The notes: generated by a model not told the origin, from the letters alone. Positions 1,363 to 64,000 are shown, counted from the stretch's first letter. The stretch is 64,000 nt of DNA from Myxococcota bacterium (GCA_040387835.1 JAZKCZ010000002.1:581818-645817), one strand, 5' to 3'. Program-made: numbers and translations.

Positions 1363-3144
1363 ATGGGCCAAATACAAATATTAAACGAAATTATTGCCAA
1401 TCAAATTGCAGCGGGCGAAGTGGTCGAGCGGCCAGCGTCCATCGTGAAAGAATTAATCGAAAACGCTTTAGACGCAGGTGCAACCCAAATTGATCTGCAC
1501 ATCATCGAAGGTGGCATCGCCAAGCTGGTTATCACCGACAACGGCTGCGGCATGGCGCCAGATGATGCCGTTTTGTGCTTTTCCAGATACGCCACCAGCA
1601 AACTTCGATCCATGAGCGATTTCGCCACCCTGAATTCATTCGGCTTCAGAGGCGAAGCCCTAGCCTCCATCGCATCCGTCAGCCGCATGAGTCTCACCAC
1701 CAGACAAGCGGATACAGTGCTCGCGACTAAAGTGGTCGTTGAAGGCGGTCGTATCTTAGAAGTAACCGAAGCCGGCGCACCTGTAGGCACACGCATTGAA
1801 GTCGAATCGCTCTTTTACAACACCCCGGCGCGCTTGAAATTTTTGAAAAGCCCACGTTCAGAAGCCAGCGCCATCGAAACCATTATGCGCCAAGCTGCGC
1901 TTTCCAAGCCGGCAGTGGGCTTTAGACTGCAAATCGACGCCACCACTAAGCTGGATGTTCGGCAAGCGCCAAGCGAAGCTCGCCAATTCGAGCGCGCAAT
2001 CTACTGCTTAGGCGAAGATACACGTGGATATTTATACCCCATCGATTTAAAAACCGACTTTCTAAGACTATCTGGCTATGTGGCCGCCCCATTGGCAACA
2101 CGCAAAGATAGCCTAGGGCTATACGTCTATGTGAATGGCCGTTTTGTGAAAGACAAACAGCTGGTTCAAGCCATTCGTGTTGCGTATAGAACCATCTTGG
2201 AAATCGGCCGCCACCCCATTGGTGCAATCAACATTGAAGTCGACCCTGAGGTGGTAGACGTCAACGTGCACCCGCAAAAGCTGGAAGTGAGATTCTCAGA
2301 ACCATCGAGAGTACAAAGCCACCTAATCCGCCTTCTAAGCGATTTTCTATCAACCACACCTTGGTTAAATTCCTACCGGGACCTCACCCCCAGCCCCTCT
2401 CCAGAATCTGGAGAGGGGAGAAGCTGGGCTTTAAGTCCCTCTCCACTTGGTGGAGAGGGATTTAGGGTGAGGCTACCCTCTCCCGATTTTGGCGAGCCAA
2501 AATCTCCCTCTCCCACAAGTGGGAGAGGGTATTACGTTCAGCATGGGCTGGGTGGCGCGGAGCGCTACACAGACCTTCGAGTGGTGGGGCAGATTGATTC
2601 TACCTATCTTCTTCTAGAAGGCGCGCGTTCTATGATCGTTTTGGATCAGCATGCAGCGCATGAACGGGTCGTATTCGAACGCGTCTGCGCACAAACCAAA
2701 CAAAACGGTGTTTCCTCTCAAGCTTTACTATTTCCTGTCTCCATCACGCTTTCTCCCGGGGATATGCAGACGCTGATCGAAAAGAAAGATGTCTTTTTGC
2801 CCTACGGCTTCGAAATCGAGCCCTTTGGCGATCACCAAGCGATCGTCAAAACCACTCCCGCAGGCCTTAAGTCGGAGTATGCCGAGACGATCATTAAGGA
2901 CACCCTGTCCGATTTACGAAACGCCGACCGCCCAGATGCGTTGCAAGAGTTCTCCGATCACATCTGCGCACAAATCGCTTGTCACACTTCCATCAGAGCC
3001 GGACAGCGCCTAGATAATTCAGAAATCCTAGCCCTATTAGAACAACTTGACGTTATCGACTACGCCGCGCACTGCCCACACGGACGCCCGGTAGTACGAG
3101 CGATACCTTTCACCGAGATCGCTCAATGGTTTCACAGGACTTAA
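1363..3144 (+). CDS. mutL: DNA mismatch repair protein MutL, with a 50-aa in-frame insertion in the linker
   Basis: N-terminal GHKL ATPase motifs (NQIAAGEVVERPASIVKELIENALDAGA, ITDNGCGM) and a C-terminal dimerisation domain. A miaA gene overlaps the 3' end, the classic mutL-miaA arrangement. Confidence 0.9.
   Translation: MGQIQILNEIIANQIAAGEVVERPASIVKELIENALDAGATQIDLHIIEGGIAKLVITDNGCGMAPDDAVLCFSRYATSKLRSMSDFATLNSFGFRGEALASIASVSRMSLTTRQADTVLATKVVVEGGRILEVTEAGAPVGTRIEVESLFYNTPARLKFLKSPRSEASAIETIMRQAALSKPAVGFRLQIDATTKLDVRQAPSEARQFERAIYCLGEDTRGYLYPIDLKTDFLRLSGYVAAPLATRKDSLGLYVYVNGRFVKDKQLVQAIRVAYRTILEIGRHPIGAINIEVDPEVVDVNVHPQKLEVRFSEPSRVQSHLIRLLSDFLSTTPWLNSYRDLTPSPSPESGEGRSWALSPSPLGGEGFRVRLPSPDFGEPKSPSPTSGRGYYVQHGLGGAERYTDLRVVGQIDSTYLLLEGARSMIVLDQHAAHERVVFERVCAQTKQNGVSSQALLFPVSITLSPGDMQTLIEKKDVFLPYGFEIEPFGDHQAIVKTTPAGLKSEYAETIIKDTLSDLRNADRPDALQEFSDHICAQIACHTSIRAGQRLDNSEILALLEQLDVIDYAAHCPHGRPVVRAIPFTEIAQWFHRT
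2382..2530. repeat. cluster of 3-4 palindromic units (CCCTCTCCAG-N3-CTGGAGAGGG type plus ATTTAGGGTGAGG), inserted in-frame in mutL
   Basis: Palindromes at 2394-2418 (cccctctccag aat ctggagagggg), 2437-2459 (ccctctccacttggtggagaggg, followed by atttagggtgagg at 2460-2472), 2485-2504 (gattttggc ga gccaaaatc) and 2506-2529 (ccctctccc acaagt gggagaggg). Translated in the mutL frame as PSPSPESGEGRSWALSPSPLGGEGFRVRLPSPDFGEPKSPSPTSGRG. Confidence 0.8.
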
Positions 3145-9091: not shown

Positions 9092-9691
9092 ATGTACAGC
9101 CTGATTCAAAAACCAGCCCCTGATTTTAATGCCGAAGCTGTGATGGCTAACGGTGAATTTTCAAAAATTTCGCTTTCTAGCTTTAAAGACAAAAAATATG
9201 TCTGCTTATTTTTCTACCCACTAGATTTCACTTTCGTATGCCCATCTGAGATCATTTCATTTTCTCACCGCGCAAAAGATTTTGAAGCGCGCCAAACCCA
9301 AATTTTAGGTGTATCGGTTGATTCCAAATTTAGCCATTACGCCTGGAGACAAACGCCCGTGGACAACGGCGGAATTGGTGCGATTGAATTCCCGTTAATT
9401 TCCGACATCACCAAGGAAATTGCTCGTGATTATGGCGTACTAGTTGAAGATGCAGTCGCTTTGCGCGGAACATTCTTAATCGATATGGCTGGCGTTGTCC
9501 GTCACGCAACTTTGAACGATCTGCCACTGGGCCGAAATGTTGATGAAACCCTTCGCATGATCGATGCTTTGCAACACACTGAAAAATATGGCGAAGTATG
9601 TCCAGCAGGCTGGAGAAAAGGTGATACCGCGATGAAGGCTAATACAGCCGGCGTAGCATCCTATCTGAAAGAAAACGCTGCAAACCTATAA
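9092..9691 (+). CDS. ahpC: typical 2-Cys peroxiredoxin (AhpC/Prx1 family)
   Basis: Peroxidatic FTFVCPSEI and resolving VCPAGW motifs. 199 aa. Confidence 0.85.
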   Translation: MYSLIQKPAPDFNAEAVMANGEFSKISLSSFKDKKYVCLFFYPLDFTFVCPSEIISFSHRAKDFEARQTQILGVSVDSKFSHYAWRQTPVDNGGIGAIEFPLISDITKEIARDYGVLVEDAVALRGTFLIDMAGVVRHATLNDLPLGRNVDETLRMIDALQHTEKYGEVCPAGWRKGDTAMKANTAGVASYLKENAANL

Positions 9692-9709
9692 AAGCTAGGT
9701 TTCCAAAGT

Positions 9710-9752
9710 CCCCCTCCAGATCCTGGAGAGGGATTTAGGGTGAGGTCCCCTC
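9710..9752. repeat. palindromic element copy (ccccctccag atc ctggagaggg + atttagggtgagg) between convergent genes; possible bidirectional terminator
   Basis: Perfect 10-bp inverted repeat at 9710-9732 followed by atttagggtgaggtcccctc. Sits exactly between the ahpC stop (9691) and the stop of the minus-strand gene (9753). Confidence 0.75.
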
Positions 9753-10388
9753 TTAGCTGTTGCTTGATGCAGCTGGTGCACTAACGCCACCTTCTACCAC
9801 AACATTCACAGGAACAGCCACTGGAGCGCCACCACCTGGTGTTACAGGATTTGCAGGAGCTGCGGGTTCAGCGGGTGTTGCAGGTGTTGGGCTCGGTGCA
9901 GCGCCTGGGCCTACTGGAGCAGCGGGTGCTACAGGTCCTGGCGTCAAGGATACGCCGCCAGCTGGCATTGGAGCGATTGCTGAGTCTTTAGACACAATCG
10001 CGCCTTTAGCAGCAACTTCACCTTTGGAAGCCACTTGGGATTGTGATGAAACTTGCTGAGCTTTCGATTCGTGATGAAACAGAGCTTCAATTTTGCTGCC
10101 TAGATCTTGAAACGCAGCTTGAATAGCATGTAGATGAGGATGAGACACCTTCACTTCTACAGTTCCTTGCATTTGAGCTGAACCAGCGGCCATAGGAGCC
10201 ACAGGCGATTTCATCGCTTGCATCGGTGATTTAGGTTCAAAATGATCTTTAGCCGCAACTTTGCTTTCGAGTTTGGCTTCTGCTTTCGCAGGGGCAGCTT
10301 GTGTCGCAACTTGGCTTGCGCCTTTTGCAGCTTCCTGTGCAACTACAGTTTGGGATTTTGCAGGGATTACCATATCTTTTCCGCCCAT
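9753..10388 (-). CDS. low-complexity Ala/Pro/Gln/Lys-rich protein (hypothetical), paralog of the downstream gene
   Basis: 211-aa ORF starting MGGKDM. Strong RBS (AGGAGATAAAGAAC then ATG). Pro/Ala-rich C-terminus. Shares the MGG start and an A/K/Q/T/S-rich composition with 10511..10900. Confidence 0.55.
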   Translation of the reverse strand: MGGKDMVIPAKSQTVVAQEAAKGASQVATQAAPAKAEAKLESKVAAKDHFEPKSPMQAMKSPVAPMAAGSAQMQGTVEVKVSHPHLHAIQAAFQDLGSKIEALFHHESKAQQVSSQSQVASKGEVAAKGAIVSKDSAIAPMPAGGVSLTPGPVAPAAPVGPGAAPSPTPATPAEPAAPANPVTPGGGAPVAVPVNVVVEGGVSAPAASSNS

Positions 10389-10466: not shown

Positions 10467-10500
10467 GATCCTTCCTCTTTGGATTCAAAGAGGAAGGATC
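10467..10500. promoter_or_regulatory. perfect hairpin (14-bp arms, 6-nt loop) between the two paralogous genes
   Basis: gatccttcctcttt ggattc aaagaggaaggatc. No U-tract on either strand. Downstream of the 10511..10900 stop and upstream of the 9753..10388 start. A second short palindrome, gtgacc tcgtt ggtcac, lies at 10408-10424. Confidence 0.5.
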
Positions 10501-11053: not shown

Positions 11054-12259
11054 ATGAGTCGAATATTTTACATAGTTTTGATTTTTCTGAGCGCGTGCGC
11101 GCCTCAGTTTAATTCAGAGCCATCTGAAATTCATTACAAGATCACGCCCCAGGCAAATGGATTTTTGGTGGAGATCACGCACGACGCGTCCGTTGCCCCG
11201 ACCATGACTTCGCCAGCTTACTATTCGACTTTTTCTCTGCAATCCAGCGGAAATGACCATACCGTCCGCTATTTTATCAAGCCCGCTCGCAGACAGGCAC
11301 ATGGCCCTTCGGATACCCAAATAGATCTATCTGAAGGTTTTTTCAAAACCTCAGGATATGGCTTAATCGCCTGCTTGGGCCGGAAATGGGATGAAGCCAA
11401 ATCAGTTCGCATCACCTGGCAAGCTCCAAAACCCTGGCGGTTTGCCAATTCCTTTTCAGCCGGAGCTACGCAGCAATCGTTTAAAGCGAGCTGTTATCAA
11501 CTTCAAAACGCTCTATATGCTGGCGGAACCAACCTGCGCTTCTACGAAACCCCTTTAGCTACCGTGGCCATTTCTAATAACGCTTCCGAAAAGGTTAATA
11601 AGAAATTAATTGCGACAGTTAAAAAGAACATGGTGAAAGTTAAAGATTTCTGGGGCGAGCTTGACGATGCCAAAGAATATTATTTTGTTTTGATTCATCC
11701 AGCGAATGGCAACGAGCACGGTGGTACCGCGCAATTTCAGTCTTTTCAATTAGCGCTTGCTGATTTTACGCCTTCTGACGCTTCTAAAGAGTTAGATCAT
11801 CTGATTGCGCATGAATATTTCCATCAATGGAACGGCATTAAAATCAACGTACCAGTGAGCACACAGCATGAAGTCCGCTGGTTCGTGGAAGGGTTCACGG
11901 ACTATTTTGCCTTTTCCATCTCAGGGCACACAGCAAACTTCAGCAATAGGTTCGAGAATGTCAGCCTTAAAAATTATGTCTCTGACATGAAAACTCATTT
12001 TGATGTTCCGTACATACAAGGCCGAAAAATCGCGGCTGATATGGATAAAGCAATCCAAAATTATTCAAGTCGTAAGCTTGAGCATTTGATGCGCCATATT
12101 GTTAGGCGATCGCAAGCAGATCCGCTATTTTACTTAACGCAGGCAAGCATCTTGGGCGTCATTTGCGAAGGCAACTATATGAACTGTGACCAAGCACACC
12201 AACTGATAGAAAACCATGTCAACCTAGGCCATCCATTTGTCACGGCGTCTCGAGATTAA
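11054..12259 (+). CDS. gluzincin zinc metallopeptidase lipoprotein (M1/M61-like)
   Basis: Lipoprotein signal (LIFLSAC). HEYFHQWNG HExxHxW motif followed by WFVEGFTDY, resembling the M1 NEGFA motif. Confidence 0.6.
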   Translation: MSRIFYIVLIFLSACAPQFNSEPSEIHYKITPQANGFLVEITHDASVAPTMTSPAYYSTFSLQSSGNDHTVRYFIKPARRQAHGPSDTQIDLSEGFFKTSGYGLIACLGRKWDEAKSVRITWQAPKPWRFANSFSAGATQQSFKASCYQLQNALYAGGTNLRFYETPLATVAISNNASEKVNKKLIATVKKNMVKVKDFWGELDDAKEYYFVLIHPANGNEHGGTAQFQSFQLALADFTPSDASKELDHLIAHEYFHQWNGIKINVPVSTQHEVRWFVEGFTDYFAFSISGHTANFSNRFENVSLKNYVSDMKTHFDVPYIQGRKIAADMDKAIQNYSSRKLEHLMRHIVRRSQADPLFYLTQASILGVICEGNYMNCDQAHQLIENHVNLGHPFVTASRD

Positions 12260-63000: not shown

Positions 63001-64000
63001 CGGCGAAGTCGTCGGCTTTGCCATTGGCGGGCCGCTCGAGCATTCTAAAGTAGACGGCCCGGTGCATGATCCCATGCGTGGGCTCGGCAATACTTTTTAC
63101 TCAACCGACATTGTGATTCATGAATCGCTGCGCGGTAAAGGCGTTGGTTACCATTTAAAAGCAGCGCAAATCGAAGCCGCAAAAAAACTAGGCTACGCCT
63201 ACATGAGCGGCCGCAACCGCGTGGGCGCGACGTCTGAAATCCAGCGCATCAACAAAAGCTTCGGCGCCTATACAGTGGCCGTATACGACCACCAATACGG
63301 CAGCGATGCACAAGCACTCTACTATCGCATCCCCCTCCTAAGACCAGCCCTCCCCTCTCCCCTCTCCAGTTCCTGGAGAGGGGCCGGGGGTGAGGTCAAC
63401 TGGGCCGACTCAATCCAAGCCCCCCTAGGAAAACACTCCCCCGAAATCCTAGCCGACATTCAAAAAGGCATCTTCACCACGGCCGTCGGCACCAAGCTAA
63501 CGCTTTCCAATTTCATCACCCCTGACATGGTGCGCTACACCGAACTTTTGCGCCATTTGATGCCTAGATCATGCAAGCATCTCTACTTCACCTCTGGCCG
63601 AGATGAGATGGTAGACAAGGGTCTACGCTCGCTCAAAGTCAGCCGCCCCGGCGCCGAAATTGCCATCGGTCTCAAAGGTCAATATCTAGGCCACACCACC
63701 TGCTCTGCCAGAAGCCTAACCGACCCGGGCGATTATCAAAAACCATTCAGCTGGTTCGACTGGCCACTCGCCGAAACGGCAGAAGACATCGAAGCCTTAA
63801 TCACGGAGCACGGCGCCGATAAAATATTCGGCATCGTCATCGAACTCATGGGCGAAATGACCGGTAAAGTCATATCCCCAGATTTGCTCAGACGATTAAG
63901 CGATATTCGTGAAAAGACTGGCATCCCACTCGTGTTCGTCGAAACAGCTTCCAGCTTAGGCCGAAGCGGCGAAAGTTTATTCCTCAGCGACTCGCTCCCC
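60062..64000 (+). CDS. giant multidomain fusion protein (ALDH / class-III aminotransferase / GNAT / second aminotransferase-like domain), 3' end beyond the window
   Basis: Open frame of at least 1313 codons with no stop. N-terminal AstD-like succinylglutamate-semialdehyde dehydrogenase (VLGPYNFPAHL...ILALEMGGKN...FQSAGQRCTA...APFGGVGKSGNHRP). AT-III domain (IIAFEGSFHGRT, DEVQTGFG). GNAT (LRGKGVGYHLKAAQIEAAKKLGY). Then FTSGRDEMVDKG...VFVETASSLGRSGE. Confidence 0.7.
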   Translation, partial: MGKGSFIGGVFVAGAGEIIRSQNPARAYETVFETNADISHVAKAVEAAEKALPIWRGLTQNERVLALKSVEAVFKKREEDLAQRITAEMGKIFTESLFEAKNVSGRVSLTAEEGLKRVATEHPPGAGETRYHAQGIMAVLGPYNFPAHLMNSHIIPALMTGNTIVAKPSELCPGVGELYAECFEEAGLPAGVFNLIQGRGDIGKALVTHPRIRGVLFTGSYQTGRALTEMLLDHPHKILALEMGGKNTAVVLDDADLYQCLVEISQGAFQSAGQRCTATSRVLIDRQVAPKLIPALIRMAKEFVPADPTNTDTVLGPMAGRAALERYLSLLEKVRESAGCKVLLEAQVLPGGAFVTPSVYQVEQFVDIELFGPHFDIQLFDGLDEAIKLVNQSDYGLSNSIFTRSETSFERFYQETYSGVLNWNRSTNGLSGKAPFGGVGKSGNHRPAGIDAVRNATYPVMVQSLPFGHAEPLAPLALKFKSEQIGLSETLEDLIKSHEQEFAAQRYRYFDQPHVPKDIRLPASEVMLQRLYQGDLVPREKKEPIVDLFASKGPYLVSIDEEPLVIFDAASQIASLGLGFSAGPFQKALDEGQLTESLLSNAADISGDSEAYEKLLLSRADKSLNYVSFTTSGAAANEKAFDLCRLNGPGGKRIIAFEGSFHGRTMMALHATYNPEKRKGFELPGYEVTFLPFGSLDGLKEALAKGDMCCVIVEPVQCEGGDNFASIDFFRGVRQITRDMGVPMVVDEVQTGFGLFGPFFYHTAFGLENGPDCVTLAKKAQLGVVLSTWPDTRPEHPHQIQIQKGLIQAKAVLEAPFQDLERQIADRLAKLHEAFPMLVSNPRNTGYAFAFNMPTPAQANHVVNQRFSRGFMVYIAGVQTLRFRANIDTTLKEIDFLFDALHGALKGTAPAKTNVVSQAALPLMGGISIEQFTPDQWSYYANNIEALEHAAYEPERRDSMAYLESWLKQPKSVGLIAKQRGEVVGFAIGGPLEHSKVDGPVHDPMRGLGNTFYSTDIVIHESLRGKGVGYHLKAAQIEAAKKLGYAYMSGRNRVGATSEIQRINKSFGAYTVAVYDHQYGSDAQALYYRIPLLRPALPSPLSSSWRGAGGEVNWADSIQAPLGKHSPEILADIQKGIFTTAVGTKLTLSNFITPDMVRYTELLRHLMPRSCKHLYFTSGRDEMVDKGLRSLKVSRPGAEIAIGLKGQYLGHTTCSARSLTDPGDYQKPFSWFDWPLAETAEDIEALITEHGADKIFGIVIELMGEMTGKVISPDLLRRLSDIREKTGIPLVFVETASSLGRSGESLFLSDSLP
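63352..63396. repeat. palindromic element copy (cccctctccag ttc ctggagagggg + ccgggggtgaggtc), in-frame inside the giant ORF
   Basis: Perfect 11-bp inverted repeat at 63359-63383. Translated as PSPLSSSWRGAGGEV in an interdomain position. Confidence 0.75.

Follow-up and report, generated by a model that had tools for sequence, protein, structure and literature searches.

A BoxC/PIT/TMECO-type triplex-motif repeat in frame in an interdomain linker of a Myxococcota fusion enzyme

Introduction

How can DNA that looks like a dispersed repeat serve as coding sequence of a multidomain enzyme, and what kind of repeat is it? The question is raised by a locus near the end of a 64,000-nucleotide stretch of DNA from a Myxococcota bacterium (GCA_040387835.1, JAZKCZ010000002.1:581818-645817), the whole of which is called the window here. 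Within a long open reading frame (ORF), the host ORF, the window carries a perfect palindrome at 63359-63383, CCCCTCTCCAG ttc CTGGAGAGGGG, followed by ccg GGGGTGAGG tc to 63397. A preliminary description of the window recorded this palindrome as a copy of a dispersed repeat, and missed that a hairpin followed by GGGGTGAGG is the known BoxC/PIT/TMECO triplex motif. BoxC/PIT/TMECO repeats have been known since the 1990s. Judged by its sequence, the element at 63359-63395 is a register-shifted copy of this intrastrand-triplex repeat and not a new element. Given its motif identity, its position and frame, the state of the orthologous sites and the depletion of such units from ORFs, we consider it probable that a dispersed copy of a BoxC/PIT/TMECO-type repeat was tolerated in an interdomain linker, is in frame by survivorship and has been renewed.

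Results and discussion

The element is built like the BoxC/PIT/TMECO triplex motif

Holder et al. 2015 (NAR 43:10126; PMC4666352), found by a full-text literature search with the two 9-mers, treat BoxC, or PIT, as an intrastrand triplex motif, 'TMECO'. The TMECO consensus is 5'-CCCTCNCCC N3-6 GGGNGAGGG N3 GGGNGAGGG, in which loop 2 is either type A (TTA) or type B (CCG) (PMC4666352). The census of these authors comprises 3610 copies in 262 proteobacterial genomes, 23 of them in E. coli K-12, where the motif is 'always located intergenically' and forms five inverted A+B pairs (PMC4666352). A single strand of TMECO forms a stable triplex in vitro; local genomic instability is linked to the motif, and a transposase is not (PMC4666352). 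Earlier work on BoxC/PIT (Bergler/Bachellier, Hoyne & Maher) is known to us as cited in PMC4666352.

The window unit, CCCCTCTCC / AGTTCCT / GGAGAGGGG / CCG / GGGGTGAGG, has nine of nine full triads, equal to types A and B of E. coli TMECO (PMC4666352 Table 1). The three blocks of a class II (purine-motif) intrastrand triplex all lie on one strand at 63359-63395 (Table 1). G-stem 2 is reverse-Hoogsteen-compatible with G-stem 1 (G·G, A·A or T·A) at 9/9 positions and, because it mirrors G-stem 1, all nine positions would be able to form G·G-C, A·A-T or T·A-T triads. The hairpin at 63359 has a DNA folding energy of -17.8 kcal/mol (z = -3.6), and ViennaRNA predicted the hairpin alone for the 37-nt unit. 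The full unit is more than a hairpin, for a third block, GGGTGAGG, stands 3-5 nt past the hairpin in all full window copies. Loop 2 also follows the published scheme of three nucleotides of two types that occur in inverted A+B pairs: it is CCG at 63384-63386, and a pair of units in the window's mutL gene has CTG and TTT.

Element and TMECO thus share the order of C-stem, loop, G-stem, 3-nt loop and mirrored G third strand, a nearly identical core (GAGAGGG...GGGTGAG) and two loop 2 types (TTA-like and CCG). Both occur in either orientation, in inverted A+B pairs and as dispersed multiple copies, with no linked transposase reported. They differ by a one-base shift of register, the blocks being CCCCTCTCC/GGAGAGGGG/GGGGTGAGG here and CCCTCTCCC/GGGAGAGGG/GGGTGAGGG in E. 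coli, and by two extra hairpin pairs here (AG..CT or AC..GT). They also differ in host, since the copy studied here is from a Myxococcota metagenome-assembled genome (MAG) and its variant occurs in at least 15 phyla, as against the 262 proteobacterial genomes of PMC4666352. Finally, three of the four full window units are translated, whereas the E. coli K-12 copies are intergenic.

Rfam at gathering thresholds gave no match anywhere in the window, which places the element outside the described RNA families. A reading of 63359-63395 as an intrinsic terminator was ruled out, as there is no T-run and the unit lies within an open frame.

The repeat is multi-copy and widespread

The pattern CCCCTCTCCAGNNNCTGGAGAGGGG, with up to three mismatches allowed, matched the window at 2394, 9709 and 63359 and gave no match in 100 dinucleotide-preserving shuffles. 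Together with the loci found elsewhere, this is dispersal far above chance and bears out the preliminary description's view of the element as a further copy of a dispersed repeat. The same counts bear on a more skeptical account, namely that the tract does not derive from a repeat at all. The palindrome would then have arisen by chance in a Pro/Ser/Gly linker of low complexity, or the long ORF would be false, produced by an assembly error or a frameshift. The source is indeed a MAG, and the linker has the same length as in element-free homologues (below). However, besides the empty shuffles, 31 of 31 scan-pattern positions, loop 2 type included, match units at 2382 and in other genomes. Moreover, in two orthologues assembled independently the same frame runs through the element and on into the conserved domain downstream, and homologues show that the GNAT-aminotransferase fusion is genuine. 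We find an origin by chance or artefact hardly credible.

GTDB species genomes were scanned with an exact pattern of 24 specified bases, TCCASNNNSTGGAGAGGGNNNNNGGGTGAGG. At least 120 stretches matched, and these loci span at least 15 phyla. Hosts among the matches listed are Acidobacteriota (Thermoanaerobaculia), Chloroflexota, Myxococcota, Bacteroidota (including cultured Chitinophagaceae), Gemmatimonadota, Armatimonadota, Zixibacteria, SAR324, Burkholderiaceae, Spirochaetota, Ignavibacteria, Elusimicrobia, Fibrobacteres and one Dojkabacteria MAG; across these listed matches the stems and third strand are constant and loop 1 is freely variable. Phage carriage was considered as a vector between phyla, and viral contigs with the 24-base pattern numbered only six.

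Two features of the wider family were seen in passing. In MAGs of Thermoanaerobaculia and other Acidobacteriota the 37-nt core lies within a longer repeat of ~160-190 bp that has an outer inverted repeat, GGGCCCTCC...GGAGGGCAG, and copies 80-93% identical within and between MAGs (for example L003 3890-4060, L004 4210-4390 and L019 1925-2110, among L003-L122). Thus, a shared core is packaged in lineage-specific larger repeats. Units with TTT as loop 2 have a conserved 5' flank, AAAGT or AAGT, that pairs with ATTT to give a hairpin of 14-15 bp. The flank stands at 2432-2440 and 9705-9713 of the window and in L015, L046, L047, L067, L090, L099 and L109, and is common to Chloroflexota, Myxococcota, Elusimicrobia and the window.

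REP and REPIN sequences are short hairpins mobilised by RAYT (Y1 HUH) transposases and are extragenic by definition. The window units resemble them as short G/C-rich dispersed hairpins whose inverted doublet (2382-2472) folds into a longer structure, but no GTAG-type head stands next to the units and the conserved extra block is GGGGTGAGG. According to the summary in PMC10969869, Rickettsia palindromic elements (RPE; Ogata et al. 2000) are ~150 bp long, belong to one lineage and are genic and in frame; the Coxiella QMITE is another intragenic miniature inverted-repeat transposable element (PMC5896051). Like these, the repeat studied here is a palindromic dispersed repeat with copies in frame in unrelated protein-coding genes, housekeeping genes among them, where the encoded peptide is compatible with fold and function. 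Unlike RPE, the window unit is 37 nt long, G/C-rich, provided with a triplex-type third strand and found across phyla; it is not a ~100-150 bp element homologous to the Rickettsia families. Moreover, an RPE lengthens its protein, whereas the window element replaces linker sequence.

The element encodes a variable linker between two enzyme domains

Pfam assigns Aldedh to residues 12-458 of the host ORF, Aminotran_3 to 540-784 and GNAT (Acetyltransf_1) to 947-1045, and homologues of the downstream part carry a second Aminotran_3 (class-III-aminotransferase-like) domain. Across the element the ORF reads ...YYRIPLLRPALPSPLSSSWRGAGGEVNWADSIQAPLG..., where PSPLSSSWRGAGGEV corresponds to codons 63350-63394. 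The element-coded linker comprises residues 1097-1111, 3' of GNAT, and 13 of the ~17 linker residues are coded by the element. An AlphaFold2 model of GNAT, linker and truncated downstream part gave a confident GNAT fold with ALYYRIPL as its last strand; directly after that strand come the element-coded residues (198-212 of the query) with predicted local distance difference test (pLDDT) values below 50. The downstream domain is cut at the window end, so the model is little informative there.

Pfam, the model and the homologues agree with the earlier placement of the linker between GNAT and an aminotransferase-like domain, and the in-frame copy in a giant ORF likewise held, since the frame from ATG 60062 is open to the window end. 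The interval first given for the element, 63352-63396, does contain it, although it begins 7 nt ahead of the core and misses the codon boundaries by 2 nt.

The protein family shows what the element replaced. All 12 homologues aligned over the junction have a linker between ...YYRIPL and ...(D/N)WAS, of 11-19 residues where the element is absent versus 17 in the window. There was therefore no net gain of a 15-residue segment, and the idea of a simple added segment, put forward in the preliminary description, is not supported; the two closest orthologues, L001 and L002, moreover already carry the element. Homologues further removed (35-49% identical) show no sign of the element yet have the fused GNAT-aminotransferase order, and the fusion is therefore older than the element. 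For the same reason we ruled out that the linker is an intergenic spacer captured at gene fusion: these homologues are already fused, with linkers of 11-19 residues. The biology at this locus is probably that of a neutral, replaceable linker.

The host ORF is itself unusual in joining an aldehyde dehydrogenase, a class-III aminotransferase, a GNAT acetyltransferase and a second aminotransferase-like domain; its aminotransferase-GNAT-aminotransferase part has homologues in Myxococcota and in other MAGs.

Translated copies use every hairpin frame

Consensus units are stop-free in five of six frames (type B) or three of six (type A) and, because the hairpin is palindromic, the six frames yield three peptide classes (PSPxxGEG, PLSxxWRG and PLHxVER). 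The preliminary description expected coding copies to share one translated frame (PSP...G.G). Instead, the giant ORF reads its unit as PLSSSWRGAGGEV and MutL as SPSPLGGEGFRVR and LTPSPSPESGEG, and TSPxxPLHxVERG is found elsewhere. In other genomes, Pfam-verified coding copies lie in frame in a KdpB-like P-type ATPase (PPSPLRGEGLGVRF, within the hydrolase domain), a UDP-glucose dehydrogenase, an asparagine synthase (an in-frame doublet that splits GATase_7), TruB (TSPLTPLHQVERG) and an M19 dipeptidase (TSPPTPLHSVERG). The verified copies use all three hairpin frames and both strands and are not confined to interdomain linkers. A single shared coding frame is thereby ruled out, and the exclusively intergenic location reported for E. 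coli K-12 does not extend to these units.

Long ORFs are depleted of such units. At loci below 55% G+C, units lie in long ORFs in 11 of 35 cases versus 357 of 580 random positions (odds ratio 0.29, p = 6e-4). Many spanning ORFs at 65-72% G+C (Thermoanaerobaculia, Chloroflexota) look spurious, their translations being Arg/Pro/Gly-rich nonsense, and were excluded from the coding copies. The mixture of frames and orientations, together with the depletion from ORFs, supports the purging of disruptive insertions, one of two processes suggested at the outset; the other, selection for frame-preserving insertion, finds no sign of frame-directed insertion among the mixed frames. Hence, the in-frame state is best explained as survivorship after disruptive insertions were purged, and frame-directed insertion is unsupported.

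For annotation, this means that peptides such as PSPxxGEGxGVR, PLSxxWRGxGGE and TSPxxPLHxVERG mark translated repeat DNA rather than conserved motifs. In some Myxococcota the unit is often translated (MutL, TruB, a sugar dehydrogenase, asparagine synthase and the fusion enzyme), and such genic presence is unusual for a family previously described as intergenic and, for the TMECO consensus, proteobacterial.

The orthologous site holds intact units of different subtypes

Both of the closest orthologues, L001 (~70% identical) and L002 (~66%), have the element at the same site. L001, from the MAG ELA443, reads cccatttccac agg gtggagagggg tta ggggtgagg tc aattgg: it agrees with the window in right junction and frame, its left arm is part-decayed (7/9 pairs) and its loop 2 is TTA. 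In L002 a unit lies in minus orientation and has kept its third strand intact (CCTCTCCCC TAA CCCCTCTCC ...); another hairpin and, at a distance, a mirrored G block are also present, for two to three units in all. A search of metagenomes for orthologues closer in the linker region yielded only relatives of 36-44% identity.

The C/T-rich run that precedes the window element aligns with the minus-strand third strand of L002. Within the run, 63347-63355 (GCCCTCCCC) mirrors the C-stem at 7/9 positions, giving a degenerate third strand of a minus-strand motif on the same hairpin. The earlier suspicion that this run is a decayed additional unit was therefore roughly right, the remnant being a third strand of the opposite strand that is intact in L002, rather than a whole unit.

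Sequence divergence between the orthologues is large. On the 3' side of the element the window and L001 proteins are 72% identical, and third codon positions agree at 32.5% over 200 codons, which is saturation. Despite this the window unit is perfect (11 bp and nine triads), the G-stems are identical to those of L001 at 18/18 positions and six of seven informative third positions agree (binomial p = 0.006). The differences between window and L001 are those between family subtypes, AG..CT versus AC..GT at the hairpin top and CCG versus TTA in loop 2, and in each orthologue the variant is the one most common among the few other units from that genome (small numbers).

These data speak to one alternative history, a neutral relic of one ancient insertion that has since drifted unmaintained. 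A single event would account for the junction ggggtgagg/tcaaYtgg, common to the window and L001, and drift for the degraded left arm of L001. At 32.5% third-position identity, however, an unconstrained 37-nt tract should have lost its palindrome and its mirror, and the window kept both; in addition, five coordinated differences from L001 convert one family subtype into another. We therefore think a drifting relic quite improbable. Intact copies that differ in subtype point to re-insertion, gene conversion or DNA-level selection and not to passive decay, two orthologues being too few to separate the three.

DNA-level selection leads to another alternative, in which the motif is kept by a function in DNA or RNA: a pause in replication or transcription or a recombination-prone site at the domain boundary, or an 11-bp G/C mRNA hairpin that slows the ribosome between domains. 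The perfection of the unit despite saturation, with its matching G-stems, would be expected of such a function, as would the retention of one or more hairpins at the junction in all three orthologues. Several findings argue the other way. Element-free homologues with the same domain order manage without the unit, as do MutL orthologues 67-73% identical to that of the window (P0026-P0037); coding copies elsewhere occur within catalytic domains, not just at junctions; and the L001 hairpin is already decaying, at 7/9 pairs. As for the published record, PIT elements had no activity as promoters or terminators, nor did they block polymerase in vivo in the earlier work, as far as it is cited in PMC4666352. 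A conserved DNA- or RNA-level role thus seems unlikely to us.

A probable path from dispersed repeat to linker

The reading that we favour, a tolerated and renewed copy of a dispersed repeat, can be set out as follows. The G/C-rich hairpin and the mirrored purine tract would allow one strand to fold back twice into a purine-motif intrastrand triplex, and the family would be REP-like and non-autonomous. The copy studied here lies on the sense strand of the gene for the multidomain enzyme and now encodes most of the flexible linker between GNAT and the aminotransferase-like domain. Tolerance would come from three sources: a linker unconstrained in sequence and length across the protein family, a unit that is stop-free in five of six frames, and a Pro/Ser/Gly-rich peptide from every open frame. 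Insertions that break frame or structure would be purged, leaving survivors in frame. The site would have been occupied since before the split from the two saturated orthologues, or struck repeatedly, and the intact copies of different subtypes suggest that it was renewed, either by re-insertion or through gene conversion from paralogous units.

Several points weigh against this account. The strict E. coli TMECO consensus has no match in the window on either strand, because of the 1-nt register shift and the two extra hairpin pairs (loop 1 being 7 nt, or 3). The TMECO triplex was undetected in duplex DNA or in vivo (PMC4666352). A link of a transposase to a BoxC-type repeat is unreported in the literature, and we found no RAYT-like gene in 0.99 Mb (window plus loci), a weak test that used a crude regular expression for HUH and YxxNP motifs and no profile search. 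The case for mobility comes from dispersal only, and that for renewal comes from two close orthologues in the searched collections, a small sample.

A stronger version holds that site-preferring re-insertion, gene conversion or DNA-level selection actively renews a perfect unit in the coding linker across lineages with saturated synonymous sites. We regard this as possible, though doubtful. If true, the repeat would supply Pro/Ser/Gly peptides for linkers and loops across phyla, and its orthologous coding copies would form a dated series for working out how BoxC-type repeats propagate. What the locus adds to PMC4666352 is a genic habit, the spread of the variant over many phyla and intact, subtype-switched units at one orthologous coding site; a cross-phylum core, its translation and a persistent orthologous site could bear on the function and mobilisation of BoxC-type repeats.

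Other repeat units in the window

The features of the window are collected in Table 1. Of the two other copies counted in the preliminary description, that in MutL is in frame, as part of a cluster of at least three units (2382-2530), and that at 9709 is intergenic. In the MutL ORF (1363-3144) the interdomain linker at 2382-2530 consists largely of these units and reads DLTPSPSPESGEGRSWALSPSPLGGEGFRVRLPSPDFGEPKSPSPTSGRGYY. The units at 2382-2418 and 2436-2472 form an inverted A+B pair that folds at -34.8 kcal/mol (z = -7.0) into a three-way structure.

Table 1. Positions of the host ORF, of the parts of the element and of the other repeat units in the window
Feature	Coordinates	Strand	Remarks
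Multidomain host ORF, >1312 aa	60062..64000	+	opens at ATG 60062, no stop to window end
C/T-rich run (tccccctcct...gccctcccctct)	63331..63358	+	5' of element core
C-stem CCCCTCTCC	63359..63367	+	hairpin pyrimidine strand; 9/9 Watson-Crick pairs with 63375-63383
Loop 1 AGTTCCT	63368..63374	+	AG/CT form two extra base pairs, giving an 11-bp stem with 3-nt loop
G-stem 1 GGAGAGGGG	63375..63383	+	hairpin purine strand
Loop 2 CCG	63384..63386	+	'type B' of Holder et al. 2015
G-stem 2 GGGGTGAGG	63387..63395	+	potential third strand, mirrors G-stem 1
Unit, loop 2 CTG (B-like)	2382..2418	-	in frame in MutL linker as LTPSPSPESGEG
Unit, loop 2 TTT (A-like)	2436..2472	+	in frame in MutL as SPSPLGGEGFRVR
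Hairpin-only relative (CCCTCTCCCAC aag TGGGAGAGGG)	2506..2529	+	third strand absent; in frame in MutL (SPSPTSGRG)
Intergenic unit, loop 2 TTT, one stem mismatch	9709..9745	+	between convergent ORFs 9092..9691(+) and 9753..10388(-)

The window MutL is identical to the NCBI protein P0025 from a Myxococcota MAG. It is 23-31 residues longer than most of its closest orthologues (562-570 residues, ~70% identical), P0026 and P0037 being equally long. None of the closest orthologues (67-73% identical, P0026-P0037) has GEG/PSP units in its linker, and the MutL cluster is therefore lineage-specific, unlike the copy in the giant ORF. A MutL homologue of another lineage, P0044 (57% identical), has repeat-like linker peptides of its own (GGRGIKGEGD ... 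HPHPTLSRPAGEG), which suggests that repeats of the same kind have colonised the MutL linker independently.

At 2476-2515 of the MutL linker the direct repeat CCCTCTCCC stands on both sides of a small separate hairpin, GATTTTGG cgag CCAAAATC, which may either be an inserted unit of another kind or mark the junction of a duplication. The intergenic space that separates ORFs 9753..10388(-) and 11054..12259(+) holds, at 10467-10500, a perfect inverted repeat of 15 bp, GATCCTTCCTCTTTG n4 CAAAGAGGAAGGATC. This repeat has no relation to the triplex motif and could act as an operator or a terminator.

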